Assembly (NCBI GenBank): GCA_964437335.1
Contig: CAYTGL010000006.1
Span: forward strand, 24,523-88,522
Direction of reading: 5' to 3'
DNA length: 64,000 nt
DNA from: an uncultured Chromatiales bacterium
GTDB taxonomy: Bacteria > Pseudomonadota > Gammaproteobacteria > SZUA-140
Shown here: positions 2,323 to 19,175 of the stretch, in pieces
Position numbering within the stretch: the first letter of the stretch is position 1
Layout of the letters: each line of letters starts with the position of its first letter
The notes under the pieces: generated by a model
Seen by the model: only the letters and a program-made list of their open reading frames with translations
What the model was told of the DNA's origin: nothing
Database searches by the model: none
Translations under genes and position numbers: made by a program

Positions 2323-2346
2323 TAAAGGGTCCGCAAGGACCCTTTA
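2323..2346. repeat. REP-like hairpin TAAAGGGTCC-GCAA-GGACCCTTTA at a convergent junction
   Basis: Perfect 10-bp stem with a GNRA loop that includes the stop codon of the minus-strand gene. Confidence 0.7.
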
Positions 2347-4950
2347 TTGTATCCGGCGATCGAGCGGCGCGAGCTCCCGCAGGGAATCCCGATACCGCGC
2401 CGCCAACACCTGGTTTCCCGCCCCAGCCTCGAGCCGCCACAACGCATGCAACACCTCGATGTGATCAGGCCGGATAGAGAGTATCCGCTCCAGCGCCGTC
2501 CGTCTATCGATGCCGAGGCTCATCCCCTGATCGAGACTCGCATACATGCGGTCAGCGATATCGAAACTGATCCATCGATCCCGTGGATTCGCCTCCAAGG
2601 CCATGTGCATGAGCCTGGCGGCCTCCTGAGCCCGGTCGCTCAGTGACGCGACCCAGGCCAGGGTCGCAATCTCTGTCGCGATGTAGGCGCCCTCGAACGC
2701 CTCGAAATTCTCGGCGGGGATCTCGAGCATCGCGGCAGCCGCCTCGACTGAAGGCCTGTCTGCCAGCAACCGGCCGGTCAGCCTGCCGAGATCGAATTCA
2801 CTGCCATAGCGCGCCTGGGGCAGACTGAATTCGATGCGCGGCGCCCATTCATCCTGAACCGGACCGTCGTCATGCCGGATTTCGCCCCAATATCTGCCGA
2901 GCCAGGTCCACAAGCCTTCGCCACCGGTCAGTGCATCGCGTTGTGACGATTCCATCCAGGTCATCCGTTCGATGACAGCTTCCATATCCAGCCGGCCCCG
3001 GGGCGTCCCCACCATCGCTACCCTGAAGCCGTCGATAAAGTAAGAGGCCCCGGGGAACACGCGCGCGAAACTGCGCATGACAATATCGAGCGAGCGCGCA
3101 TCAAACTGGTTCAGGGCCAGCCACTGCACAAATACGCCATCCTCGGCAAGACGCTCTCGCACGCGCCAGAACTGCTGCATTGACAGCAGATTACTGCGTC
3201 CAACCAGGTCGGGATGGAACAGGTCACCCACAATCACATCATAATTGCGACCGGCGGCGCGGAGAAAGCGTCTGACATCGTCGTGCACGATACGGGCCTT
3301 GTCGGTGATGCCGTGATTGACCGGCCCGAAGTACGTACCGGCAGCGGCGATTGCGCCTGCGGACAGTTCGACAGCGACTACTGACAGATCCGGAAGCGCG
3401 AGCGAACCCGCCGCGGTGATTCCGGTGCCGAGTCCGAGAAACAGCGCCTCCTTCGGCTCCGGATGCAATATCAGCGGCAGGCGCGCCATGTTCATCTGCG
3501 CCGCGACCGCAGCCGGCTCCGTGGATGCCTCCATGCGCCGCAGGTCCGACAACAATACCCGCTGGCCATCCGGCTGTTCGATGACATGGGTGATCGACAG
3601 CGCATCTTCGTACACCATCATGTCCCGACTGCCGGCATGCGGTCCAGGCAGCAGCCGGTTGACTTCCGGCAGGGAACCGATCGGCCAGCTGAGCGCAAGC
3701 AACAGTGGCAGCGCAAACCACATTCGCCGGGACGTCGACCAGGCCATGCCGAACAGAAAGAGCAGCAGCGCTGCGACACAAATCGTCGCTGGCGTCCCGA
3801 TCCACGGCACCAGGATGAAACCCGCCGCCAGGGCGCCGACCGAGGCGCCTGTTGCATTCGCGCCGTAGAGCCAGGCGCCGGTCAGGTTATCGCCGGCGCC
3901 GATGCCGCGGCTGAGCAGCGGCAGCCAGGCGCCGAGCACCAGCGTCGTCGACAGGGTCAGCAGCGCAATTGCCAGGCCTTGGGCAACCAGCGCCGCCCCG
4001 AGCGATCCGAATTCAGCGCCGTCCGCCCAGGCCGCGAGTACCGACAAGCCCGCAAGACTGAGGAGCGCCGTCGCGCTTGCAACGGGCGGGAACCACGTGA
4101 GACCCGTGGAAACCGGGATCCGCCTGGCCAGCAGGCTACCCAGCCCAATGCCGATCAGGAAGATGCACAGCAAGATTGCCAGCACATATTCGGTGCGCAG
4201 CAGAATCATGCCATACAGGCGCGTCCAGCCGACCTGCAGCATGAGCGCCGCTGCGCCTATGCCGGCATAAAACACCAGCGTTCGCCAGGGAGGGCGCGCG
4301 CTGGTCACGATCGTAGCGCCCGCCGCGAACTCGTGCCTTGCAGATAGCGAGATCAGTACCGCCGCGAGCGCGACCAGCAGGCCCAGGGTCGCGACCAGCT
4401 GGATCGCGCCTGCCCAGCCTACCAGCGGCAGCAACAGCAGCGGCACCAGGGCGCCGCTTGCTCCGCCCAGCGTGTTCAAACCGTACACCGAGACGATCGT
4501 CACTGGGGTGTTTTCGAAATAGCGTAATACCAGCGGGAAACCGACACCGAGCGCCAGCGCGGGAAAGAACAGGATCAGAAACGAAACTACGCCCTGCAGC
4601 AGAAACCACGACTTCAGCGGCAGGACAACTGCGATTGCGCCGAGCAATCCGTCAACGAAAGCAAACAGCCAGGGCATCGACAATGCGAATATCGCGACGC
4701 CCCCCTCGAGCAGCGCGAACAGGACCAGTGGGCGTGTAAACCGGCGTACTGACCAGGCTCCGAGCAAGCCGCCCGCGCCAAGGCCTGCCATGAATGCGAC
4801 CAGCGTGACGACCACGCCGAAGTTGCTGACGCCGAACTGGATGGACAACATGCGCACCCACAGGACTTCATAGGCGACGCCGGTGACACCGGACAGGAAG
4901 TAGATCCCGAGCAGCAGCGATGTCCACCTGCTGCCAGCGGTCGCCTGCAT
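2344..4950 (-). CDS. Fused MFS-like membrane domain / spermidine-synthase-like SAM-binding protein
   Basis: Multi-TM N-terminal half (SGVTGVAYEVLWVRML, LRTEYVLA) followed by LFLGLGTGITA, VELS and YDVIVGDLFHP. Start taken at MQATAG (4950). Confidence 0.85.
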   Translation of the reverse strand: MQATAGSRWTSLLLGIYFLSGVTGVAYEVLWVRMLSIQFGVSNFGVVVTLVAFMAGLGAGGLLGAWSVRRFTRPLVLFALLEGGVAIFALSMPWLFAFVDGLLGAIAVVLPLKSWFLLQGVVSFLILFFPALALGVGFPLVLRYFENTPVTIVSVYGLNTLGGASGALVPLLLLPLVGWAGAIQLVATLGLLVALAAVLISLSARHEFAAGATIVTSARPPWRTLVFYAGIGAAALMLQVGWTRLYGMILLRTEYVLAILLCIFLIGIGLGSLLARRIPVSTGLTWFPPVASATALLSLAGLSVLAAWADGAEFGSLGAALVAQGLAIALLTLSTTLVLGAWLPLLSRGIGAGDNLTGAWLYGANATGASVGALAAGFILVPWIGTPATICVAALLLFLFGMAWSTSRRMWFALPLLLALSWPIGSLPEVNRLLPGPHAGSRDMMVYEDALSITHVIEQPDGQRVLLSDLRRMEASTEPAAVAAQMNMARLPLILHPEPKEALFLGLGTGITAAGSLALPDLSVVAVELSAGAIAAAGTYFGPVNHGITDKARIVHDDVRRFLRAAGRNYDVIVGDLFHPDLVGRSNLLSMQQFWRVRERLAEDGVFVQWLALNQFDARSLDIVMRSFARVFPGASYFIDGFRVAMVGTPRGRLDMEAVIERMTWMESSQRDALTGGEGLWTWLGRYWGEIRHDDGPVQDEWAPRIEFSLPQARYGSEFDLGRLTGRLLADRPSVEAAAAMLEIPAENFEAFEGAYIATEIATLAWVASLSDRAQEAARLMHMALEANPRDRWISFDIADRMYASLDQGMSLGIDRRTALERILSIRPDHIEVLHALWRLEAGAGNQVLAARYRDSLRELAPLDRRIQ

Positions 4951-4966
4951 GCTCAGTTCCGGGCTG

Positions 4967-5350
4967 TTAGAAAGGGAAGAACCAGACGATCGCTGTGACG
5001 GCATGGACGATCGCGAGGAAGACACTGACTCCGGCGAATATCATGTGTGCCAGAAACACCTGCTTGCCGAACGCCACCATCGAGACACCGAGCACGGCGG
5101 TGGTGATAATGGTGATCAGCAGGACAAAGCCCATCATGAACAGGATCTGGTGCTTGCGTTCGTCACTGATCGCGACGACGTCGCTCTTGACGACCTCCCC
5201 CTCGGTGAACCCCCGTAAGACATCGAAGGGCTTGTCTGTGTCGTCTTCCGCGCGGGAGACGCCGGGGGAGACCATTACACCGACCAGGACCAGCAGGAGA
5301 CATACGATCCACAGCCTGGTCGACCGGTTACTGCCTGCAAACACTGTCAT
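4967..5350 (-). CDS. Hypothetical membrane protein with signal-peptide-like N-terminus and two C-terminal TM helices
   Basis: 127-aa ORF with a 4-nt overlap with the upstream gene. His residues lie in the TM segments (LAHMIF, IVHAV). Confidence 0.7.
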   Translation of the reverse strand: MTVFAGSNRSTRLWIVCLLLVLVGVMVSPGVSRAEDDTDKPFDVLRGFTEGEVVKSDVVAISDERKHQILFMMGFVLLITIITTAVLGVSMVAFGKQVFLAHMIFAGVSVFLAIVHAVTAIVWFFPF

Positions 5351-5601
5351 CGCCGGTTTTCGTTATCGTCGTTGTCGGTCGGGTCATCGGTCTCATCGGG
5401 CTTCGCGAACCTCCAGTGCATGATTGCCATCAGGATCAGCGGCACCATGACCAGGGGCAGCAGAAATACGAAGATCATCCACGGGGTATTGATGCTGACA
5501 GTCACCCAGCGATAGCTGTCAAAGGCGTGCGCGGCCTGTGACTGGCCCATCAACAGCGAGAGGAATATCCCGAATTGAAATGATCGTGCTGTAATGCTCA
5601 T
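5347..5601 (-). CDS. Hypothetical small membrane protein
   Basis: 84 aa, signal-like N-terminus, one TM helix, acidic tail, and 4-nt overlaps on both sides. Confidence 0.7.
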   Translation of the reverse strand: MSITARSFQFGIFLSLLMGQSQAAHAFDSYRWVTVSINTPWMIFVFLLPLVMVPLILMAIMHWRFAKPDETDDPTDNDDNENRR

Positions 5602-6662
5602 TCGACATCCTGCGCGACTCTGAATCCGAAGAAATCAGATGCATAGTTGGGCAACGAAAAATTCCGGTGAAAGGACGAGGTCGAGAACGGATCGCTCTTC
5701 CAGGACCCGCCACGGATGACCTTGTAACGCTCGTTTGTCGGCACGAACTCCGCGATCGACAATGACCGGAGCGAAGCGGAATCCGGAATCGCCGGCAGGC
5801 TCGCGTAGAACATGTGCTCGGGCGCCGGCGATCCGGGATAGGGCAGAAAATCGTCATCGACCCATTCGGCGATGTTCCCAGCCATGTCCATGACGCCGTA
5901 GGGACTCGCGCCATTCTGATACCGCGTCACTTCTGTCGTTGATCCTACACGATAATAGGTGTTCAGGCGATCCGGATCCATCCGGTTACCCCATGGCCAG
6001 CGCCAGCCTTCAGGACCTCTGGCGGCCCGCTCCCATTCCGCTTCGGTCGGCAAACGCATGCCGGCCCATTCGGCATATCTTTTCGCATGGAACCATGAAA
6101 TCATCGCCACCGGATGCAATTCGATACCCGGCGGTATCTTGCCGCCGGTCCAGTGTATCGGTGGCCGCTGATTGGTCGCAGCGATATAGCGCGCATACTG
6201 GGCATTTGTCACGGGATATTTCGCGATACGGTACGCCGCCATCTCGACGATATGCTCAGGCTGGTTCTGCACGTCCGCGCGCGGCATGTTGGTCCCCACC
6301 GCGTAGGGGCCGGCCGGAATCTCGATCATCGTACCGATCTCGCGCCACTGCTCGGGCGTCAGTAATGCCTCCGCCTCTTCAACACTGTAGCTGGCTACCA
6401 GTCCGGGCATATACTGATGCTCGACCTCGAGGAAAAGATCCTGCCCGGCCGCGCGTTGCCTGTCCCTCGCCTCGTTGATATCGTAGGTCACCTTGCCGCG
6501 CATATCGTTCATACGGTTTTCACCGAGCTTCAGCACATGCAGGCTTCCGCCGAGGAAAGTCAGCACGAGACACGTGACGAGGGTTGCGGTCATGTACCGC
6601 TTCCTGATTTTCACCTGCCGCTTGTCGCGGAGGACTCCCTGGGGTGTATAGCTGATGCTCAT
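5598..6662 (-). CDS. Membrane-anchored FGE-sulfatase (SUMF1/EgtB/PvdO) fold protein
   Basis: IPAGPYAVG, YPVTNAQY, HPV..ISW..A..YA.WAGMRLPTEAEWERAARG, DMAGNIAEW, RGGSW and GFRVA motifs. Confidence 0.9.
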   Translation of the reverse strand: MSISYTPQGVLRDKRQVKIRKRYMTATLVTCLVLTFLGGSLHVLKLGENRMNDMRGKVTYDINEARDRQRAAGQDLFLEVEHQYMPGLVASYSVEEAEALLTPEQWREIGTMIEIPAGPYAVGTNMPRADVQNQPEHIVEMAAYRIAKYPVTNAQYARYIAATNQRPPIHWTGGKIPPGIELHPVAMISWFHAKRYAEWAGMRLPTEAEWERAARGPEGWRWPWGNRMDPDRLNTYYRVGSTTEVTRYQNGASPYGVMDMAGNIAEWVDDDFLPYPGSPAPEHMFYASLPAIPDSASLRSLSIAEFVPTNERYKVIRGGSWKSDPFSTSSFHRNFSLPNYASDFFGFRVAQDVE

Positions 6663-7171
6663 CGGTCAGAACCCTTGGGTAATTCCGCAGTGCTCGCCGG
6701 CTTGGGATCAATCCTGCCGTACTTCTTGTGCAGTTTATGGAGATTGTGCCGTTCCGTCCTGCCATAGGTTCGCCTGACCATGACTTCGCCGATGACGCCT
6801 CCGACCGTCGCAAACTCGACGCAGAGTATGATCACGAATATCCAGTAGCCGATCGGCAGGATGACCCCGCCGTCAGCCGGCGTGGTTCCATACACCTGAT
6901 AATAGAGGATCGAGTGAACGATGAGCGCAGGGGCATGCGCAAGTATTTTCCCGCCCAGTCCATAAACCAGCGATACGGCAATGCCTGCAAGAAAGGGCAC
7001 GAAAAACAGCGTCAGGACCCACTGGGGCGTATAGGTCGCCGGGCCATAATAAAATTCCAGCCTGACCCCGAGCAACTTTCCTCCGAGGTAAACCACGACC
7101 GCGCCTGCTGCAACCGCGCCCGCGGCGACGCAGCAGTCCATCAGGCGGCTTTTTATCTGCGGTCTATTCAT
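6659..7171 (-). CDS. Hypothetical 4-TM membrane protein
   Basis: 170 aa, hydrophobic, with overlaps to both operon neighbours. Confidence 0.75.
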   Translation of the reverse strand: MNRPQIKSRLMDCCVAAGAVAAGAVVVYLGGKLLGVRLEFYYGPATYTPQWVLTLFFVPFLAGIAVSLVYGLGGKILAHAPALIVHSILYYQVYGTTPADGGVILPIGYWIFVIILCVEFATVGGVIGEVMVRRTYGRTERHNLHKLHKKYGRIDPKPASTAELPKGSDR

Positions 7172-7655
7172 TAACCGGTTGATACGTCAGGCCTGTCAGA
7201 ACTTCGTATTCCGCACGCTTGACTTCCTCGAGGTACCAGTCCTCAACCTTCAGGCTGGCAAGGTAGGCAGCCAGCAGACGCCGCTCCTCTTCCGGCAGAT
7301 GCGCATAGGATGGCATGCGGTACTCAGCCTTCAGGCGAGACGGCAGGATTGTCTGGGGATCTCCGGAGGAGATATATTCGTAGAACCACTCCTCGCTTCT
7401 GAGTGTACCGATGCCATCGAGCGCGGGGGCGGGCACGCTCTGCAACCAGTTTCTGACCAGCCACAGGGAATGGCAGTTCGTGCAGTCATTGCGCTTGACG
7501 ATCGCTTCCGCCTGAATCTGCATTTCACGGGGCATGGTCGTGTAGAAAGGTATTCCGGGATCCGGCTCACCCGTACTCCTGATACCGTTGTAGGTCGCGA
7601 GACCGATGACCAGCGCGGCTATAGCGATGTAGATGTTCCGCTCACCGGTTCGCAT
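7164..7655 (-). CDS. Membrane-anchored monoheme cytochrome c (CcoO/NorC-like)
   Basis: N-terminal TM helix, CTNCH, APALDGIG..RSEEW and a distal RMP. Confidence 0.85.
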   Translation of the reverse strand: MRTGERNIYIAIAALVIGLATYNGIRSTGEPDPGIPFYTTMPREMQIQAEAIVKRNDCTNCHSLWLVRNWLQSVPAPALDGIGTLRSEEWFYEYISSGDPQTILPSRLKAEYRMPSYAHLPEEERRLLAAYLASLKVEDWYLEEVKRAEYEVLTGLTYQPVNE

Positions 7656-8678: not shown

Positions 8679-8831
8679 TTACTTGAACGGGTTGTCGTCG
8701 TTGTCGCCTGCCTGCTTTTTCTCCCAATACCGGTAGCTGTCGACAAAGAAGACCCCGTACACGGCAAAGCACAGGAAGACCACCGCGATTATTGCAGCGA
8801 ATACTCCCGGTGCGTAATCAATGTCGATCAT
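8679..8831 (-). CDS. 50-aa single-TM protein, CcoQ-like by size and position
   Basis: Manual translation gives MIDIDYAPGVFAAIIAVVFLCFAVYGVFFVDSYRYWEKKQAGDNDDNPFK. It has an ATGA overlap with the upstream stop. Not in the ORF track. Confidence 0.7.
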   Translation of the reverse strand: MIDIDYAPGVFAAIIAVVFLCFAVYGVFFVDSYRYWEKKQAGDNDDNPFK

Positions 8832-9493
8832 GCTGAGACCCCCTTCTTCATGTTCGGCTTCTTAGAGAAATGCGGCAGACGCTTGCAGACAATGACCATC
8901 GCCAGAATAAAGTAGGACACATAGAGCACGTCGATCGTATAGCCCTTGTCCCACCACGGTTGCGTGCGTTTACGCAGGCCATCCGGTCGGTACTCGCCCT
9001 CAAAATTCGCGAGCACCAACTGATCGTAGACGACGATATAACTTTCGAGGCCATAAGGTCCGCCGGCGACCGCGGCTTCCCTGATCTGGGGAGCAATCAA
9101 CTGCAGGTCATACCACGTCAACTGCGGACACTGGCGATCGATGAGCCCGGCCAGGCGACTGTCGTGGCCGCTGGCGATATGAGCCTCCTTCGCGTGGCGA
9201 CACACGAAATTCTTCTTTTCCTCGGGCGTCTTCAGTGCCTGGACTTGAGGGGAATCCATTATTTCCACCATCGGGTAATACAACTCGGCTGTCGGCCTCA
9301 GCCCCCAGATCGGCATCGTGACCATAAAAGCGGTAACAATGATCAAACCGAGCAGAAAAGTAACCGGAAACGGGAGACGGTTGTTGCCTTCCCACAGACC
9401 GCCCTGCTTTTCGTGCTCCCAGCGCTGAATCGCTTTCCTGTTTTCCTCTTCGTCAGCCATGCTGTACAGAGGATTATCCATTTTCCAGGCCAT
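8828..9493 (-). CDS. CcoP N-terminus-like 2-TM protein without heme c motifs
   Basis: HEKQGGLWEGNNRLPFP plus a TM helix resembles the CcoP HEWDGI.ELNNPLP segment. It directly follows ccoO and has no CxxCH. Confidence 0.65.
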   Translation of the reverse strand: MAWKMDNPLYSMADEEENRKAIQRWEHEKQGGLWEGNNRLPFPVTFLLGLIIVTAFMVTMPIWGLRPTAELYYPMVEIMDSPQVQALKTPEEKKNFVCRHAKEAHIASGHDSRLAGLIDRQCPQLTWYDLQLIAPQIREAAVAGGPYGLESYIVVYDQLVLANFEGEYRPDGLRKRTQPWWDKGYTIDVLYVSYFILAMVIVCKRLPHFSKKPNMKKGVSA

Positions 9494-9508
9494 TATCGTT
9501 CCCCCTCG

Positions 9509-10468
9509 TTATTTCAAGCTGGTCAAAACCCAGTCGATTACTGCCCGGATCTCGCTATCACGTGCATATTCCGGTACCTCCGGCGGATAGGCCCGCAAGC
9601 CCTGGCGATACTCGTTATACTCGCGACGCCACTTCGGATAGTCGATCTTGTTGCCCTTGGCATCGACGCGACCCCACAGATAATCGAAGCGCGGCATAAT
9701 CGAGTTCGGCTGAGTCAGGCGAGGATTGAAGAAGTGCATCATCATCCACTCGCGCGACGAATTGCGGGAGGCTACGTGCAATATGTCGGGCGCCTTGCGA
9801 TCCGATCCAAATGAAGTCGGGTTTTCACCGTTCATGTCGCCGACATACGGAGGCCAGCCAAAGATCTGGAAGTCCTGGGCTGCCTCGGGCAGCAGCGTAT
9901 GGCACCACCAGCAGCCTTCGGTGACATAGACCGTCTTGCCCCTGGCGACATAGCGGTGATTCTCGTCTCCGGTGGCACGCAATATTTCTTCAGGCATCCA
10001 TCCGCGTGTCGCGGTCGCGTTTTCGATGTAGGCCCACTCCTCGCCCTTGCTGCTCTTGCCATAGCTGATCGTGAAAACCGCACCGGTGTTTTTGTCCGCC
10101 TGGTCGATGCGTCCCTTTTGAATGCTCAGCTGTTGTACTGTCGATCCAAGATTCGCTGGATGGTTGACCGTCGATGCGAACGGCGTGCCCGGCTTGTAGA
10201 CATAGGCACGAATCGCGGGATCAATTGGTGCGCCGGTCTTCGGATCCTTGCTCAATATCACCGTAATCGGCTTGCCCGCACCACGCACAAACGGATCTTC
10301 ATAGGAAAATCCGATTACGCGACCATTCGACAGCGCCTTGTCCAGCCCCACCCAGGTCGAGTCCGCCGACCTGAAGTCGAAGCTGGGCAGGAACAGGGTT
10401 ATCGTCATCGACAACCCGAGCATTGCGCCGACGCCTACTGATCCGAGTTTATATTCTTGGAATGCCAC
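9509..10468 (-). CDS. ccoO: cbb3-type cytochrome c oxidase subunit II with a large periplasmic insertion
   Basis: G..VY..EGCWWCHT, FGSDRKAPDI, W...HF.NPR..QPNSIMPRFDYL. GTG start after a GAGGGGAG RBS. Confidence 0.9.
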   Translation of the reverse strand: MAFQEYKLGSVGVGAMLGLSMTITLFLPSFDFRSADSTWVGLDKALSNGRVIGFSYEDPFVRGAGKPITVILSKDPKTGAPIDPAIRAYVYKPGTPFASTVNHPANLGSTVQQLSIQKGRIDQADKNTGAVFTISYGKSSKGEEWAYIENATATRGWMPEEILRATGDENHRYVARGKTVYVTEGCWWCHTLLPEAAQDFQIFGWPPYVGDMNGENPTSFGSDRKAPDILHVASRNSSREWMMMHFFNPRLTQPNSIMPRFDYLWGRVDAKGNKIDYPKWRREYNEYRQGLRAYPPEVPEYARDSEIRAVIDWVLTSLK

Positions 10469-10489
10469 TTATCTCCCCTCCCCAGGCTT

Positions 10490-10529
10490 CCTTGCTTCCC
10501 CCCGGTCGACCCGGGGGGAATTTGCAAGG
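10490..10529. other. Intergenic hairpin between ccoN and ccoO
   Basis: ttccccccgg-tcgac-ccggggggaa, extended by ccttgc/gcaagg. Confidence 0.6.
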
Positions 10530-10565
10530 TACTAGTTTCTAGATTATGCCGTAAACGATGCCTGC

Positions 10566-11975
10566 TTACCTTTCGTAGGCCAGCTCGTGCGCATAACGGC
10601 CCTTGGGCACCACGGTCCCCTCACGGGCGGTCATATACATGTTGTAGAGCCAGACCATGTTTCCGGTGAACACCATCGTGCCGCCGATCCAGCGTCCGAT
10701 CATGTAGGGATGCTCGGCGACGACGACGTCGATATACGGCACCTGGTATACCTTGGCGGCGCCCTGAATCAGACCCGCGACCGTCATCGTGATCCAGTAG
10801 ATGCAGAATCCGATGAGCACGAACCAGTAGTGGAAGTTGGCAAGCACCAGCGAGTAGAGCTTTCTGCGCAGCACCTGCTGCAAACCGAAGTACACGGCCG
10901 CGATTTCGAGGAAGCTCGACATGCCGAGCAGCGCGAGGTGCGCGTGCGCCACGATCCAGCCGGTGCCGTGGATGTACCAGTTGATCGCGCGGGTCTGCTG
11001 GAAACCGCCCTGCATGTTCAGCGGGATGGCGAGCAGCACGCCGGTGACCGAGAACTTGATCTCGATGTTCTCGACGAACATGCTCCAGCGCCCTTTCATC
11101 GTCAGCAGGATGTTGGCGACGAACGCGACCGCCGGGATCAGGATCAGCACGCCCTCGACCGAAGCGAAGGACTTCAGCCACTCCGGCAGCGGCGCCGACA
11201 GCAGGTGATGCGAGGCCGGCGTCGAGTAGAACGCGATGATCGACCAGAAATGCAGGTGACCGACGCGGTGCGAGTACAGCGGATTACCGGTCAGCTTCGG
11301 GATCGTATAGTATGCGATCGCCGCGGCCACCGGCGTGATCCACAAGCCGAGCACGTTGTGCGCGAACCAGAAGGTCAGATAGCCCTCGGTCAGTCCGGTC
11401 AGATTGAACAGTTCCGGAGACTGGCCGACGACGAACGTCGTCATGACGAAGAAGATACAGGCCCCGAAGAACCAGTTCGTGATGTAGATACCCTGCGTTT
11501 TTCGCTGCGCAATGGTCATCCAGACGTTGATTCCCAGCGGCAGCAGTACACCGAATATGATGACCAGGTCGATCGGCCAGATCAGGTCGGAGTACTCGCG
11601 GCCTGAGGTGAATCCCGTCCACAGCAGGATCAGGCCGAGCGACAGACCGACATTCCACATAAAGGCAGTCCAGAGACCGAGCTTTTCAGACCACAGTCTG
11701 GTGTTGCCGAGGGCCGGCGTCATGTACATCATGGTCATCGCGAAGGCCATCGAGATCCAGCCCAGGATGACCGCGAGCACGTGCACCTGGCGCATGTGTC
11801 CGAACGCAAACAACTCGGTCCCCGTCACCATATCCGGGAAAGCGAGTTTGGACGCATTGAACGAGCCGAGGCCGGTGCCTACGATGAACCACAGGATCGA
11901 GGAAAAACCGAAGAAGAGCGTCGCTGTTCCCGGCGGGATATCCTCAGATTTCGCGAACAAATATTTCAGTATCAT
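10566..11975 (-). CDS. ccoN: Divergent cbb3-type (C-family) heme-copper oxidase subunit I
   Basis: QVHV (heme b), REYSDLIWPID, WFAHN (CuB), YSTPASHH (Tyr plus CuB His pair) and WIVAHAH (b3/b ligands). GGAGG RBS. Confidence 0.95.
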   Translation of the reverse strand: MILKYLFAKSEDIPPGTATLFFGFSSILWFIVGTGLGSFNASKLAFPDMVTGTELFAFGHMRQVHVLAVILGWISMAFAMTMMYMTPALGNTRLWSEKLGLWTAFMWNVGLSLGLILLWTGFTSGREYSDLIWPIDLVIIFGVLLPLGINVWMTIAQRKTQGIYITNWFFGACIFFVMTTFVVGQSPELFNLTGLTEGYLTFWFAHNVLGLWITPVAAAIAYYTIPKLTGNPLYSHRVGHLHFWSIIAFYSTPASHHLLSAPLPEWLKSFASVEGVLILIPAVAFVANILLTMKGRWSMFVENIEIKFSVTGVLLAIPLNMQGGFQQTRAINWYIHGTGWIVAHAHLALLGMSSFLEIAAVYFGLQQVLRRKLYSLVLANFHYWFVLIGFCIYWITMTVAGLIQGAAKVYQVPYIDVVVAEHPYMIGRWIGGTMVFTGNMVWLYNMYMTAREGTVVPKGRYAHELAYER

Positions 11976-12241: not shown

Positions 12242-12532
12242 TTACCAGGTCGCGTCGCCGCCTTTCGCCTCGCGCTGACCATGCTTGTGGCAACCGATCA
12301 TGACAATGATCGAGAACGCGAGACCGAATATCAGCATCTGCCATGTCATGAAACCGTTGAACTGCGTCGGGTCGAGATTGTCCTGCGGCCAGCCGCCCCA
12401 TGCCCCGAATGGCTCACGCCCCAATGCGCACATCATCGCGGCGCCGAACACGCTGCCATTGCCCATCCCGGTCGTGAACGCGGGTATGGCCAGGATCCAG
12501 AATAAACGGCCAAAAGTGAGCTTGTTCTCCAT
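12242..12532 (-). CDS. Hypothetical 2-TM membrane protein, first gene of the cco operon
   Basis: 96 aa with a GGGGGAGGAG RBS. Confidence 0.8.
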   Translation of the reverse strand: MENKLTFGRLFWILAIPAFTTGMGNGSVFGAAMMCALGREPFGAWGGWPQDNLDPTQFNGFMTWQMLIFGLAFSIIVMIGCHKHGQREAKGGDATW

Positions 12533-14062: not shown

Positions 14063-14599
14063 TCATCCCTTCTTCCGTTCGATCACGAGCGTTTCAATGA
14101 CCTGATCGAGCTCCCCATACAGAAGGCGACCGGGGCGCTTGAAGCGCACAATGCCCTCCTCGTCGATCAGGAAGGTCCAGGGCTCTCCGGTGACGCGAAA
14201 CGCGACAAAGGCGCCGGGGTTCTGGTATTGATCCATGTGCAGGAAGACGATGCCTTGCTCTTCGTACTTGTCCATCATCGCCGACAGCATCTGCAACTGC
14301 TTGTCGCAGACCGTGCAGTGCGCCGGGGTCGCGAATGCGATGACGACCGGGCGGCCTTCCTTCAGCACATGATCGAGCGAATATTTGTACATCCGCGGAT
14401 CCGGATGGCGATAAGAAGTCAGGCGCGACAAATCCTGGCCAACGTCATCCAGGGTCACGGTGCGGATAACCGGGGCCTTCGTGCCGAGCTTGAGGGTTCC
14501 GACCGGAGATTCGACGCAGGCCCCGAGAACCAGGACAGCGACGAACAGTACGGCGAGCTTAATCGACGCGATTATGCGGCTTGCCGGTCCCTCAGCCAT
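14063..14599 (-). CDS. Thioredoxin-fold lipoprotein with CxxC
   Basis: Lipobox LVLGAC, then FATPAHCTVC and GEPWTFLIDEEG. Confidence 0.8.
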   Translation of the reverse strand: MAEGPASRIIASIKLAVLFVAVLVLGACVESPVGTLKLGTKAPVIRTVTLDDVGQDLSRLTSYRHPDPRMYKYSLDHVLKEGRPVVIAFATPAHCTVCDKQLQMLSAMMDKYEEQGIVFLHMDQYQNPGAFVAFRVTGEPWTFLIDEEGIVRFKRPGRLLYGELDQVIETLVIERKKG

Positions 14600-15152
14600 A
14601 GGTCTTCTCCTGCTGATAATTCGGCTCCTGCAGATTGATCTCGGATGAGCGTCTGCTGGTGCGATAGATATTATAACCCCAGATGCAATTGGCCAGCAGC
14701 ACGAGCGTTCCGAAAATGCCGCCCGCCATCATTAACGGCAGCACCAGCATCGTCACCTCGTTCGGCGGCAGGGACACGCTCGCGCGTCCGCCGACAACGC
14801 CGGCCGCGCCGAAACAGCCAACCAAGCCGAGCAGGCCGAAGTTATGCATCCAGAAATGCACCTTGACGAGGGCGAGGCTGTAGATCGGGCGCTTGACCAG
14901 GCGCGGTACCAGGTAATAGATCGCACCGAAAATCGCCATCTCGACCCAGCCGAGCAGGTTCAGATGGGCATGGCCCAGCATGATCTTGTCGCCGTGCGGC
15001 CGGTTGCGGATGAAATGCGCGACATCGGGCATCATGTTGACGAGGACGCCCCAGCTGAATCCGATGATGCTGTAGATGATGCAGGCGTAGATGAACCACA
15101 GGGTGTACCGGTTGAAATCCCGTTCCCGTTCAGTCAAGCGCGGCTCGCTCAT
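14592..15152 (-). CDS. Second stand-alone 4-TM heme-copper oxidase subunit I-like protein
   Basis: GHAHLNLLGWV...YYLVPRLVKRPIYSLALVKVHFW matches CcoN helices X-XI. Confidence 0.85.
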   Translation of the reverse strand: MSEPRLTERERDFNRYTLWFIYACIIYSIIGFSWGVLVNMMPDVAHFIRNRPHGDKIMLGHAHLNLLGWVEMAIFGAIYYLVPRLVKRPIYSLALVKVHFWMHNFGLLGLVGCFGAAGVVGGRASVSLPPNEVTMLVLPLMMAGGIFGTLVLLANCIWGYNIYRTSRRSSEINLQEPNYQQEKTYG

Positions 15153-15176
15153 GTCGGTTTCCCTCCTCGCTTCAAC

Positions 15177-15749
15177 TCACTCGTTTTCGACAGGCTGAAT
15201 CTCACGGATATCCCTGTACTGCTCACGCCAGGAATCGGGCACCCACATGTTCAACATCCGGTCGATGAATGGCGAATCTCCCGGTGGCGGCACCTTCGCG
15301 ACCGACGAGCCCGCATCGGCTCTCAGTTCAGACAGGAAGATCGCGATCAAGCGGCGATCCTCTTCCGACATGCCCGCGACGTAGGCGGCTTCTTTCGGCG
15401 GGGACCCGTGATCGATCGTCGGCGCGCCATAGACTTCTTCGGGATTTGCAAGGAAGCGCTCCAGGTACTCGAGCGAACGCGCCGAACCGATGCCGTCGAG
15501 CGACAGCCCCATGCTCGTGCCCGCGCGCAGGGCCCGATGGCAGGCATTGCAGTTGGCCCGCTGATACAGGCCGGCGCCCTTGCGGCCCTCTTCGGAGAAA
15601 TCGAAATACGTGAGCTGCTCGAATAGCGGGGTATCCGACTTCATACGCACCGTTTCGAGCCCGATGTAGACGAATATGGCGCTGACAAAAAACACGCCGA
15701 AGATCATCAGAAGGATTTTTTCGCCCAGCTTCAGAGGATTTTTACTCAT
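15177..15749 (-). CDS. Membrane-anchored monoheme cytochrome c
   Basis: N-terminal TM helix, CNACH and LSLDGIGSARSLEYLERFLANP. Confidence 0.85.
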   Translation of the reverse strand: MSKNPLKLGEKILLMIFGVFFVSAIFVYIGLETVRMKSDTPLFEQLTYFDFSEEGRKGAGLYQRANCNACHRALRAGTSMGLSLDGIGSARSLEYLERFLANPEEVYGAPTIDHGSPPKEAAYVAGMSEEDRRLIAIFLSELRADAGSSVAKVPPPGDSPFIDRMLNMWVPDSWREQYRDIREIQPVENE

Positions 15750-15802: not shown

Positions 15803-15833
15803 CAAAAAATGAGGGCGGTAATGCCGCCCTCAT
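15803..15833 (-). terminator. Rho-independent terminator after cytochrome c4
   Basis: atgagggcgg/ccgccctcat stem followed by a U tract on the minus strand. Confidence 0.75.
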
Positions 15834-15974
15834 CATTAGCTTCCGGAGTATTGTTATTAGTGCGCCGGTCGAATCAGAATGCCGCAGAGATTTCCATCGC
15901 AGCTGATACGAAACCGGACGGAGGTCGGGACCGTCCGGCGCGTTCAACGCACGCGCCGGACGGTTGCCGGTGGT

Positions 15975-16817
15975 TTATTGACCTATTGCCTTCATCCTAT
16001 CATGAGCCACATGGACACCGTGGTCATAAGGCGTGCGGTTGCTGCCGGTCGCAAAGTAGGGATCCGCTACCGAGAGGTAGGCTGCGGCGTCCAGAATATC
16101 CTGATCGGATAACTTCTGGGCCACCTTCTGCATCTGCCCCATCGGATCGTTGGCCCTGCTGCCGTCGCGCCACTGCCTCAACTGGGCGACCAGGTACGTA
16201 TAGCGCTGCTGGCCGATCATCGGGTAAACCGGCGGTGCGCCGGCCCCGCCCACGCCATGGCAGGACTTGCAGGCCGGTACGCCAGGTCCCTGACTGCCGA
16301 GATCACGCGGATAGCCGTCAGTCCTGACCGGGCTGCCAAACTCGACGAGTTGACGGCCACGATAGGGCCTGCCGACCTCGACGCCGCTCGCGGCCAGCTC
16401 TTCGAGGTAGCTCTCGTTGAACAGATATGGGCTGGCAGGAAATTTGTTGGCGAGATAGGTCGCGACATCGATCCTGTCCTGAGGACTCAGCGCCGCGGCG
16501 AATGCGTTCATGACCACGCCCGCGCCCTGCGGCGTACGCTTGTTAGCGGCGAAGTCCTCGAGTTGCTTGTACAGGAACGTAAAGAACTGACCGGCAATCC
16601 GGGGAGCGCCCAACGCATCAATTCCGGTCCCGTCTTCACCGTGACAGGACAAGCAGGCTGCCGCATCGCCTTTCCCTTGTGTAAAGATTTTATGGCCATT
16701 GGCCATGTCGCCCGGCCCGAGGGAGTACAAACCCTTCGCAGCCATCGCATTACCCGTCGACAGCGCAAACCCGATCATCACCGCAATCGCTGTCAATACC
16801 AGCTTCTTGTGTCCCAT
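15975..16817 (-). CDS. Dihaem cytochrome c4-type periplasmic cytochrome
   Basis: Signal peptide, CLSCH and CKSCH, PRIAGQ...YL.KQL and QQRYTYLVAQL. Start taken at MGHKK after GGGAGGGG. Confidence 0.9.
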   Translation of the reverse strand: MGHKKLVLTAIAVMIGFALSTGNAMAAKGLYSLGPGDMANGHKIFTQGKGDAAACLSCHGEDGTGIDALGAPRIAGQFFTFLYKQLEDFAANKRTPQGAGVVMNAFAAALSPQDRIDVATYLANKFPASPYLFNESYLEELAASGVEVGRPYRGRQLVEFGSPVRTDGYPRDLGSQGPGVPACKSCHGVGGAGAPPVYPMIGQQRYTYLVAQLRQWRDGSRANDPMGQMQKVAQKLSDQDILDAAAYLSVADPYFATGSNRTPYDHGVHVAHDRMKAIGQ

Positions 16818-16918
16818 TTGCAGACCCCTCCCGCGTGTAAACTCGCCACTTTCCGTAGAGTCACCGCCGCAGTTCACTGCGATAGCTCCTCGCGAAGATT
16901 TCTATTGTTATTCAGAGC

Positions 16919-17681: not shown

Positions 17682-19175
17682 ATGATGCAATCGGTCAATT
17701 CACACGCAATCAACTATTTCGAACGGTACTGGGGCATTCTCGTCCTTCTGCTATGGGGCGCCTGCCTGCTCGTCTTCGAAGTCATCCGCCCCGATCGCTA
17801 TGGCATCGATGAAGGCGCCGCCCGCGCCCTGATCCTGAACTGGGCCGTGTTCGACCGGGTCCTGAATCCGCTGATCACGCTTGGTATCCCCGATTTCCGC
17901 GCGATGCTGTTCATTCCACTCGGGGCCTACTGGTCGGGCAACCTCCTCGCGGCAAAGATCTTCACGATGCTGATGGCCTTCGTCGCGGTCACGCTGCTGT
18001 ATCGCTGGAGCAGGCACACCGCCGATAGCGAAACCGCGCTGATCGCCGGCGGCCTGTTGCTGATCTTCCCGCTGTTCATCAACCAGGTCGACTCGATCGC
18101 CGCGGGCGCCTATCTGCTGTTGACCTTCACGGTCGGCGCGTGGATCTCGCGGAAGCATGACGACGCGCCGCGTCCGCTCAGTACCTGGTTCTTTATCATG
18201 ATGATCTGGGTGCTGATCACGATCACCATCCACCCGCTCGGGCTCGCTTACCCGGCGGCGCTCGCATGGTACTGGCATAACAAGGAAATCGCCGACCTGC
18301 GCCGCAAGAAATACCTGTATATCGGGCTTGCGCTGATCGTCTCGATCACGACCGCGATGCGCGGCGGCTGGCAGTCCACCGAATGGCTGCAAAATCCGTT
18401 TTTCACACTGGGCCAGTCGTGGCACGCGCTGACCGGAGTCAGCGGAGAACCCGGCATGCTCGTGGCCACGCTGCTGACTCTCGCATTGCTCGTAATCGCC
18501 TGGGTCGACCGGCGATTCCTGACGACCGACCTGCTCGGTACGACGCTGCTGTTCGGCGTCATCATCGGGCTTGCCGCGGCTGACCCCGCATGGGCGTTGA
18601 TCGCGGTCACACTGGTCCTGTTCCGCGGCGCCTATCACCTGGTACGGCTCAACACCTTGATGGCTGCGGGAGGGAGAGGACTGCTGCGCAACCGGGCGCT
18701 CGTACTGAGCGTGTTCTTCCTGATCTCGATCAGCTCGATGATTTCCGACAAGGCGCGGGTTCAGGCGATCCAGGCCGGCGAGATGAGCCCGCAGGACGAA
18801 CTGATCCGCATCATCGCACAGGAAGTAGCGGACAATCTCGAGGCCACGGAAAAACTGAGGATCGCCAGCCAGTGGCCGGGACGCACGATGATCGCGACCC
18901 GGCTCGATACCTTCCAGCTTCCGCCCGATACCGAGCAGACCAACATGGAGTTCCTCGCGTCGCTGAGCGGCATCACCCATCTGATCTTCGACCCGACCGA
19001 CCCGCAAAATGCCTTCCTGGTCAGGCGCGTCTCGGAATTGACCGGTGTCACCCAGACCCTCGACGTCAACGAGGGCGGCGTCCTCCTCCAGATCATGGCC
19101 TGGGATGCGGAGGATCTGGCAGACCTGCCCGCCGGCGACAGTTTAATGGGGTCTGACCCCATTAATCTTTATTAA
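17682..19175 (+). CDS. Multi-TM hypothetical protein, possibly GT-C-like
   Basis: 497 aa, about 11-12 TM helices, an acidic DE pair in the first periplasmic loop (RYGIDEG) and a soluble C-terminal domain. Confidence 0.7.
   Translation: MMQSVNSHAINYFERYWGILVLLLWGACLLVFEVIRPDRYGIDEGAARALILNWAVFDRVLNPLITLGIPDFRAMLFIPLGAYWSGNLLAAKIFTMLMAFVAVTLLYRWSRHTADSETALIAGGLLLIFPLFINQVDSIAAGAYLLLTFTVGAWISRKHDDAPRPLSTWFFIMMIWVLITITIHPLGLAYPAALAWYWHNKEIADLRRKKYLYIGLALIVSITTAMRGGWQSTEWLQNPFFTLGQSWHALTGVSGEPGMLVATLLTLALLVIAWVDRRFLTTDLLGTTLLFGVIIGLAAADPAWALIAVTLVLFRGAYHLVRLNTLMAAGGRGLLRNRALVLSVFFLISISSMISDKARVQAIQAGEMSPQDELIRIIAQEVADNLEATEKLRIASQWPGRTMIATRLDTFQLPPDTEQTNMEFLASLSGITHLIFDPTDPQNAFLVRRVSELTGVTQTLDVNEGGVLLQIMAWDAEDLADLPAGDSLMGSDPINLY
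19143..19165. repeat. REP-like palindrome TTAATGGGGTC-T-GACCCCATTAA
   Basis: Perfect 11-bp inverted repeat at a convergent junction with mutM. Confidence 0.8.

Follow-up and report, generated by a model that had tools for sequence, protein, structure and literature searches.

We analysed a 64,000-nucleotide (nt) stretch of DNA from an uncultured Chromatiales bacterium (assembly GCA_964437335.1, contig CAYTGL010000006.1, positions 24,523 to 88,522; hereafter, the window) with regard to one small gene, mini-A, an intact gene that codes for one evolutionary unit of the fold found in heme-copper oxidases (HCOs). HCOs are the main oxygen-reducing enzymes of life. The 186-amino acid (aa) product of mini-A corresponds to helices IX–XII of CcoN, subunit I of the cbb3-type HCOs, and is encoded in a four-gene operon together with a membrane-anchored cytochrome c, a thioredoxin (Trx)-like lipoprotein and a two-helix membrane protein, p152. 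Our preferred reading, which we hold with a probability of roughly 0.6, is that mini-A forms a copper-free trimer with heme b bound between the subunits and belongs to a b/c-type electron-transfer module.

Mini-A corresponds to one third of CcoN and lacks copper ligands

In profile searches, mini-A matched the Pfam COX1 family with 53.8 bits (gathering score, 34.8; E = 1.9e-14) over positions 303–411 of 436, i.e., the part of the profile that represents helices IX–XII, and the NCBIfam ccoN profile agreed, being matched at positions 339–466 of 474. Conversely, a profile of the mini-A family aligned to residues 333–464 of CcoN (E = 3e-15) and matched the first and second repeats of that protein weakly; in the profile alignment, the helix-II heme ligand of CcoN fell on the first His of the HxH motif of mini-A. 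BLASTP comparison with the 469-aa subunit I that is also encoded in the window gave 31% identity across helices X–XII, together with weaker, still significant alignments of mini-A to the first and second thirds of the same protein. Since mini-A aligns to all three thirds, the internal threefold repeat of the 469-aa protein becomes visible in this comparison.

Structure prediction, which was performed for a single chain and built on the 61 homologues of the family alignment, led to the same assignment. The AlphaFold model had a mean predicted local distance difference test (pLDDT) value of 84.8 and comprised four long transmembrane (TM) helices plus a short periplasmic helix, with the predicted monomer forming an open four-helix arc and no closed bundle. 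The top Foldseek matches of this model were the cbb3-type CcoN chains 6xkw_n, 8smr_E, 9g6b_A and 3mk7_A, with query template-modelling scores (TM-scores) of 0.74–0.75 and root-mean-square deviations of 1.8–3.5 Å over approximately 160 residues. The original prediction, which was made from the letters of the DNA and had equated the 186-aa protein with helices IX–XII of subunit I, is borne out by these data.

The same prediction had stated that both His residues of the helix-X motif and the PIYS...HFW loop are kept, and both are present in the sequence. The motif GHAHLNLLGW spans residues 60–69 of mini-A, and H61 and H63 match the two axial heme ligands of helix X; in P. stutzeri CcoN, these ligands are H345 and H347. 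Mini-A also contains RPIYSLALVKVHFW. Hence, with CcoN (3mk7_A, 6xkw_n, 8smr_E) it shares the sequence and the fold of helices IX–XII, the helix-X HxH and a P-x-x-x-R-P-x-Y-S...HFW loop. This contrasts with the absence from mini-A, which is one third of CcoN, of the helix-II His, the CuB ligands of helices VI and VII and the cross-linked Tyr, so that mini-A alone cannot make a binuclear centre. Two criteria define subunit I of HCOs and nitric oxide reductases, namely a twelve-helix core in one polypeptide and six His ligands; mini-A has four of these helices, and the helix-X pair H61 and H63 alone is present. There is no His in the periplasmic half of its third TM helix (TM3), where the helix-VII HH/CuB ligands would be located, and therefore a copper site is not expected; likewise, no CuB-type or Cys/Met copper motif was found in mini-A. 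Because every CuB ligand is missing, the label 'heme-copper', under which the module had been presented, is a misnomer for this protein.

Mini-A is an intact and strongly conserved gene

A search of 5.8 billion proteins yielded 782 mini-A clusters at 90% identity, the best 120 of which were all 167–202 aa long and 59–90% identical; at the level of 50% identity, this close family collapses to essentially one cluster. In addition, one genome per species was scanned for relatives (185,579 species), and 405 loci were found to encode one. The context and taxonomy counts given here refer to the best 80 of these 405 loci, all of which are metagenome-assembled genomes (MAGs). The closest relatives among them (89–90% identity) belong to uncultured Chromatiales, and the remaining ones to Gammaproteobacteria, Thiotrichales, Ectothiorhodospiraceae, Chromatiaceae and Zetaproteobacteria/Mariprofundaceae.

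The alignment of 61 family members contained 51 invariant columns. Conservation of the HAH motif in homologues, on which the original prediction had made its proposal depend, was complete with regard to the two ligands, given that H61 and H63 were invariant in 61 of 61 aligned members as well as in 80 of 80 genome loci. Moreover, 13 of the 15 positions between residues 61 and 75 of the second TM helix (TM2; HxHxNLLGWVEMAIF) were invariant on all faces of the helix, as would be expected of a helix buried between partners and cofactors. The family-invariant residues also include C24, R51, E71, R88, H99 and H103. For two of them, E71 in mid-membrane and H103, there is no equivalent in the 469-aa protein, in P. 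stutzeri CcoN, in the paralogous single unit mini-B (see below) or in the consensus of the fused family, while H99 is the His of the HFW motif and is also carried by CcoN repeats. The invariant residues specific to mini-A suggest that the protein does more than simply ligate a bis-His heme, with the handling of protons or metal being a possibility.

We also monitored selection on the gene by comparison with the closest orthologue (locus L004, 90% aa identity). The ratio of nonsynonymous to synonymous substitution rates (dN/dS) was 0.09 for mini-A at a dS of 0.57, which indicates purifying selection and not the relaxed selection that the original prediction had named as typical of a gene fragment. 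Values for the neighbouring genes were 0.09 (190-aa cytochrome c), 0.18 (Trx-like gene) and 0.07 (full-length oxidase). PGAP and IMG label proteins of this kind 'cbb3-type cytochrome c oxidase subunit I', as they would label a fragment; nonetheless, the notion that mini-A is the decaying or wrongly called remainder of a once full-length gene for subunit I is scarcely credible. The low dN/dS, the constant length across clusters, the invariant columns, a proper ribosome-binding site, the predicted translational coupling described below and a synteny that is fixed in 80 species-level genomes rule out a fragment or pseudogene, and the gene upstream encodes a cytochrome c and not helices I–VIII. 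A recent partial duplication of the 469-aa gene was also rejected, since identity is just 31% and the family is conserved in two proteobacterial classes, so that any duplication that gave rise to mini-A must be old.

A conserved operon with a cytochrome c, a Trx-like lipoprotein and p152

The genes of the operon follow in the order 190-aa cytochrome c, mini-A, Trx-like lipoprotein and p152 (Table 1). Synteny was scored by tblastn of the window proteins against the 80 loci, with the presence of the mini-A modules scored within 10 kb. The gene for the Trx-like lipoprotein lay immediately downstream of mini-A in 80 of 80 loci, and that for the 190-aa cytochrome c immediately upstream in 78, i.e., in all loci that hold upstream DNA; p152 came next downstream in 78 of 80. 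Both junctions of mini-A that had been described beforehand, a membrane-bound monoheme cytochrome 24 nt upstream and an overlap with a thioredoxin-like lipoprotein gene, were found as such. The start of the latter gene overlaps the stop of mini-A by 8 nt (ATGGCTGA), through which the lipoprotein is predicted to be translationally coupled to mini-A.

The 190-aa cytochrome combines one N-terminal TM helix with a single heme-binding CNACH motif. In its 78 orthologues, CxxCH and a D-H approximately 45 residues later are invariant and no conserved Met occurs at the usual distance; the D-H is a possible source of the sixth heme ligand. This cytochrome had been called CcoO/NorC-like, a description that did not hold up and was dropped. 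Only the generic Pfam Cytochrom_C profile was matched (E = 5e-6), neither FixO (PF02433) nor ccoO (TIGR00781) was matched in Pfam and NCBIfam, BLASTP detected no similarity to the FixO-like protein of the window (E = 9.7), and the nearest solved structures were unrelated small cytochromes. Compared with CcoO/NorC (the FixO family), the likeness is one of architecture, i.e., a TM anchor at the N-terminus and a single periplasmic heme c domain, encoded beside an HCO-fold gene, whereas the FixO match and the conserved Met are missing and the invariant D-H is found instead. Judged by its sequence, the 190-aa protein is a generic class-I cytochrome c that is CcoO/NorC-like in architecture only.

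The Trx-like lipoprotein carries the invariant motif FATP-x-HCT-x-CD and matched the Pfam families AhpC/TSA (E = 1e-8) and Thioredoxin_2 (E = 2e-4), with weak matches to DsbE/CcmG/ResA/MauD-type proteins that included DsbE/CcmG structures. The features that define the TlpA/ResA/DsbE class (thioredoxin fold, CxxC, and export or anchoring) are all found in it; its best NCBIfam scores of about 20–21 bits stayed below the equivalog and subfamily cut-offs (123–359 bits). These profile results place it in the TlpA/ResA/DsbE fold class, and not as a named member of it. For p152, no family match was obtained in the profile searches.

Two further elements were frequently found near the operon. A diheme cytochrome c gene was located further upstream of mini-A in 67 of the 80 loci, and it was not detected by tblastn in those of the Zetaproteobacteria/Mariprofundaceae. 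Besides, an oxidase block, which consists of the 469-aa subunit I, the FixO-like subunit and further conserved genes, was present at +1.8 to 5.3 kb from mini-A in 58 of 80 loci; in locus L012, the oxidase and mini-A blocks are swapped in order, yet adjacent. At least eight loci with the full 10 kb downstream of the four-gene module lack the oxidase block, and in locus L022, which has none, genes for AsmA, PqiA, MlaD and others are found downstream of the module. On account of the loci without an oxidase block, the oxidase is a frequent, non-obligatory neighbour, and the four-gene operon is the core.

Relatives with several units suggest a trimeric assembly

An exhaustive search of 1.84 billion representatives at the 50%-identity level was also carried out. 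Short proteins of this set (145–190 aa) kept the HxH motif in 29 of 36 representatives. Many relatives of 380–440 aa are built from three units in tandem with one HxH apiece, the motifs lying about 130 residues apart, and three HxH motifs were counted in 13 of the 26 proteins of 360–450 aa. There are also two-unit relatives of 281 aa and a protein in which one unit is joined to two cytoplasmic DUF1858 domains. Ten longer or distant matches (four of them of 390–420 aa) were scanned with the idea that the multi-unit proteins of 390–440 aa might be NnrS; they gave COX1 and no other family, except that one of the ten also matched DUF2871.

One three-unit family, formed by P0126 and 23 relatives (410–419 aa), some of them from MAGs labelled Proteobacteria or Deltaproteobacteria, was studied in more detail. 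Within this family, five of the six HxH His residues (H40, H42, H185, H187, H324) are invariant and the sixth, H322, reaches at least 90% conservation, and its third unit aligned to mini-A with an hhalign probability of 99.3%. The AlphaFold model of the family (pLDDT, 91.7; predicted TM-score, 0.90) superimposed on the whole of CcoN with query TM-scores of 0.77–0.79 and a target TM-score of 0.70. P0126-type proteins thus resemble mini-A in having one HxH per unit and are predicted to form a whole HCO core; they differ from it in being single polypeptides in orphan contexts, with neither a cytochrome c nor a Trx partner. Other three-unit proteins are P0133, P0140, P0142 and further ones, the loci L013–L015 being among those of the relatives. 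The one-, two- and three-unit orphans lie distant from any oxidase, with a PilZ protein or a Crp/Fnr-type regulator as neighbours, and bear the annotation 'cbb3-type cytochrome c oxidase subunit I'.

By a Rosetta-stone argument, a three-unit fusion with the shape of an HCO speaks for trimers of the separate units, and the modelled fusions suggest that mini-A forms them as well. An open-arc monomer that equals one third of CcoN and a TM2 that is invariant all round both agree with a mini-A trimer. In the assembly that we propose, three mini-A copies would form a 12-helix HCO core. In HCOs, the ligands of heme b are the His of helix II and the second His of helix X, and the high-spin heme is bound by the first His of helix X. 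If the trimer is symmetric, each pocket between subunits would lie between the first His of one mini-A and the second His of its neighbour, in the manner of heme b in CcoN, and so up to three bis-His hemes b could be held; this cofactor geometry is proposed by analogy with CcoN. Such a trimer would amount to a multi-heme cytochrome b that contains no copper and lies close to the periplasm, and the operon as a set would provide a small module for b/c-type electron transfer at the periplasmic face, usually acting beside the neighbouring divergent cbb3-type oxidase and the diheme cytochrome c. A module that works with these two partners is the most economical and the most likely reading of the data.

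Several points weigh against this proposal. The oligomeric state of mini-A, its heme binding and its contact with the cytochrome are all features that we infer, and the mini-A alignments are shallow (effective number of sequences, Neff, of about 1.9). The fused relatives are approximately 29–37% identical to mini-A and occur in unrelated contexts without cytochromes, for which reason they are informative on assembly and not on function. Furthermore, a trimer that binds heme leaves C24, R51, R88, E71 in mid-membrane and, where TM3 reaches the cytoplasm, H99/H103 unexplained, and a simple electron-transfer chain does the same for the roles of the Trx-like lipoprotein and p152.

Alternative explanations

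The operon could instead encode an enzyme in its own right, a free-standing, copper-free 'proto-oxidase' made of a mini-A homotrimer with three equivalent bis-His hemes b, each served by an anchored cytochrome c. Such an enzyme might, for example, connect the respiratory chain with periplasmic thiol or peroxide chemistry carried out by the HCTxCD lipoprotein and, if true, would serve as a living model for the symmetric ancestor that was triplicated into heme-copper oxidases; we regard it as rather unlikely. Equally doubtful is a role of mini-A as an accessory subunit or assembly factor that docks on the 469-aa protein or passes heme or copper to it, with the Trx-like lipoprotein holding cysteines or Cu reduced. 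It would fit an oxidase block that lies 2–5 kb away in 58 of 80 loci, a linkage that survives the rearrangement in L012, a Trx-like protein that is weakly TlpA/ResA/DsbE-like with an invariant His-Cys-x-x-Cys, and a CcoG-like Fer4_5/Fer4_18 protein near the mini-B gene in loci L010 and L012. On the other side stand the loci that hold the module without an oxidase block, the missing CuB-type and Cys/Met copper motifs and the orphan relatives distant from oxidases. Nor did the idea of a heme/Cu scaffold for CcoN assembly, as raised in the original prediction, gain any specific evidence from our data, the module being found also without an oxidase within 10 kb.

That mini-A is a membrane gas or redox sensor, whose HxH-bound heme would take up NO, O2 or CO as a ligand and signal via p152, in a way comparable to proposals for NnrS, seems improbable to us. 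The one-unit relative fused to two DUF1858 domains adjoins a Crp/Fnr-type regulator and a three-unit relative adjoins a PilZ protein, and many such homologues are reportedly linked, in Pei et al. 2014, to denitrification and NO detoxification. However, the mini-A operon contains no recognisable signalling domain or regulator, p152 is without a family match, and two c-type cytochromes that are tightly coupled to it speak for electron flow instead. The original prediction had also considered hetero-oligomers of mini-A with a second, 172-aa unit, and this unit, mini-B, does exist in the window (Table 1). Mini-A and mini-B both keep HxH and are homologous (hhalign probability, 98.6%), they are encoded in one supercluster in the window and in L012, and the match pairs P0003/P0273, P0004/P0286 and P0023/P0324, in each of which the longest contig has an identical length for both members, suggest shared contigs, all of which would be compatible with one pseudo-oxidase of, e.g., 2+1 stoichiometry. 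Nevertheless, the two genes are 13 kb apart in separate operons, mini-B is directly followed by a gene for 171–187 aa in the window, L010 and L012 (PF20603 in the window and L010), and in L011 it is found without the cluster and far from any oxidase. Joint assembly is thus likewise improbable, and the copper-free trimer within a b/c-type module remains our preferred reading of mini-A.

Relation to known single-unit proteins

That single-unit HCO homologues are already on record, as had been noted before our analysis, was corroborated by Pfam and by earlier work. Pei, Li, Kinch and Grishin (2014, Protein Sci 23:1220) reportedly described single four-helix HCO homologues that are most similar to helices 9–12 and retain HxH, and are said to have proposed that homo- or heterotrimers of such units rebuild the 12-helix core. 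The idea of a trimer was consequently published in 2014, and mini-A adds no new concept in this regard. As far as these reported descriptions of the so-called HCOH proteins go, mini-A resembles them in being an independent gene with its own ribosome-binding site, in having four TM helices akin to helices 9–12 and in keeping His at the helix-X heme-ligand positions, and it differs in that it scores above the COX1 threshold and is therefore closer to true CcoN than the remote families are.

Pfam DUF2871 (PF11070), a 134-position profile of uncharacterised proteins, also comprises short proteins of the size of a single unit. The relatives P0030 and P0036 matched it over the whole profile with 25.1–25.4 bits (E of about 2e-5), below the gathering score of 27.4, and mini-A gave no match at E ≤ 0.1; from these profile scores, DUF2871 appears to be a related family and not that of mini-A itself. 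In the literature on DUF2871, the titles and abstracts pointed to incidental mentions only. Full-text literature searches returned nothing on the mini-A subfamily or its operon, with Pei et al. 2014 as the sole relevant prior work, and no description was found of the four-gene operon, of its link, in MAGs of Chromatiales, Thiotrichales, Zetaproteobacteria and further Gammaproteobacteria, to a divergent cbb3-type oxidase or of the breadth of the triple-HxH 12-TM relatives.

Subunit I of HCOs has an approximate threefold axis, its 12-helix core being pseudo-symmetric (PMC3604715), and Pei et al. 2014 is cited in another paper for a homotrimer topology like that of the HCO core (PMC4602095). The threefold pseudo-symmetry points to an ancestor of three identical four-helix subunits. 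This ancestry could become testable with the mini-A family, whose members can be aligned residue by residue with CcoN, are abundant and strongly selected and have defined partners. If mini-A is a trimeric heme protein, it would show the origin of the heme b site, and by extension of heme b3/CuB, at subunit interfaces, and its operon would give the respiratory chains of these bacteria a further redox module, an uncharacterised one. Mini-A offers a good experimental entry both to the origin of heme-copper oxidases and to this module. In practical terms, metagenome surveys can overcount oxidases when such genes are labelled 'cbb3-type cytochrome c oxidase subunit I', as they currently are.

Features of the window and minor observations

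Table 1. Positions of mini-A, its operon and related features in the window.
Feature	Position	Strand	Remarks
PF20603 'Bact_hydrolase' protein, 186 aa	373..933	(-)	Directly follows mini-B
Mini-B, paralogous single HCO unit, 172 aa	923..1441	(-)	26% identical to mini-A
FixO/CcoO-like monoheme subunit, 319 aa	9509..10468	(-)	N-terminal extension of approximately 170 aa
Putative C-family (cbb3-type) subunit I, complete, divergent, 469 aa	10566..11975	(-)	
p152, 152 aa	13600..14058	(-)	Two TM helices plus soluble C-terminal domain; fourth operon member
Trx-fold lipoprotein, 178 aa	14063..14599	(-)	Lipobox LGAC; AhpC/TSA-thioredoxin fold; CTVC
Mini-A, single HCO unit, 186 aa, 4-TM	14592..15152	(-)	Equals CcoN helices IX–XII
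Codons of H61-A62-H63 (CAT GCC CAT)	14964..14972	(-)	Match the two helix-X heme axial ligands
Intergenic spacer, 24 nt	15153..15176	(-)	GGAGG ribosome-binding site, 8 nt ahead of the ATG of mini-A
Membrane-anchored monoheme cytochrome c, 190 aa	15177..15749	(-)	One N-terminal TM helix; single CNACH
Terminator-like hairpin	15834..15808	(-)	11-bp stem plus T run; consensus scan match only
Diheme cytochrome c, CcoP-like heme domains	15975..16877	(-)	Open reading frame (ORF) of 300 aa from a GTG start

The gene for the diheme cytochrome is set apart from the four-gene operon by the terminator-like hairpin. A promoter scan gave 3 sites versus 2.5 expected, i.e., no excess over chance, and no promoter is claimed. 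With homologues of the diheme cytochrome being 244–281 aa long, the true start of its 300-aa ORF is probably internal.

Positions 8828–11975 (minus strand) are predicted to encode a complete but divergent C-family oxidase. In the 469-aa subunit I, the six His ligands are all retained, as is the Tyr of helix VII, and this subunit matched P. stutzeri CcoN1 (3mk7_A) with an E value of 1.4e-61. A 221-aa protein that follows the FixO-like subunit showed a faint FixP_N match only and has no CxxCH; for this reason, the separately encoded diheme cytochrome may replace CcoP.

Some further genes accompany these clusters. Just upstream of the oxidase gene, a small membrane protein of 96 aa (12242–12532, minus strand) is kept in 60 of 80 loci, and a 497-aa PMT_2-like polytopic protein (17682–19175, plus strand), divergent from the cytochrome genes, was found in 56 of 80. 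Within 2344–6662 (minus strand), an FGE-sulfatase-domain protein of 354 aa and a polytopic spermine-synthase-like protein of 893 aa accompany the oxidase cluster in 45 and 43 of the 80 loci, respectively.

With regard to mini-B, its family comprises 842 clusters, in which H52, H59 and H61 are invariant. Positions 6659–7655 (minus strand) hold a second anchored cytochrome c paired with a 4-TM protein of approximately 170 aa, again with an 8-nt overlap. The 163-aa cytochrome of this pair (7164–7655) and the 190-aa cytochrome of the mini-A operon are paralogues (24% identity, E = 1e-7). Its 4-TM partner (6659–7171) was tried as a third HCO unit and rejected, the hhalign probabilities being 0.2% with mini-A and 2.6% with mini-B.

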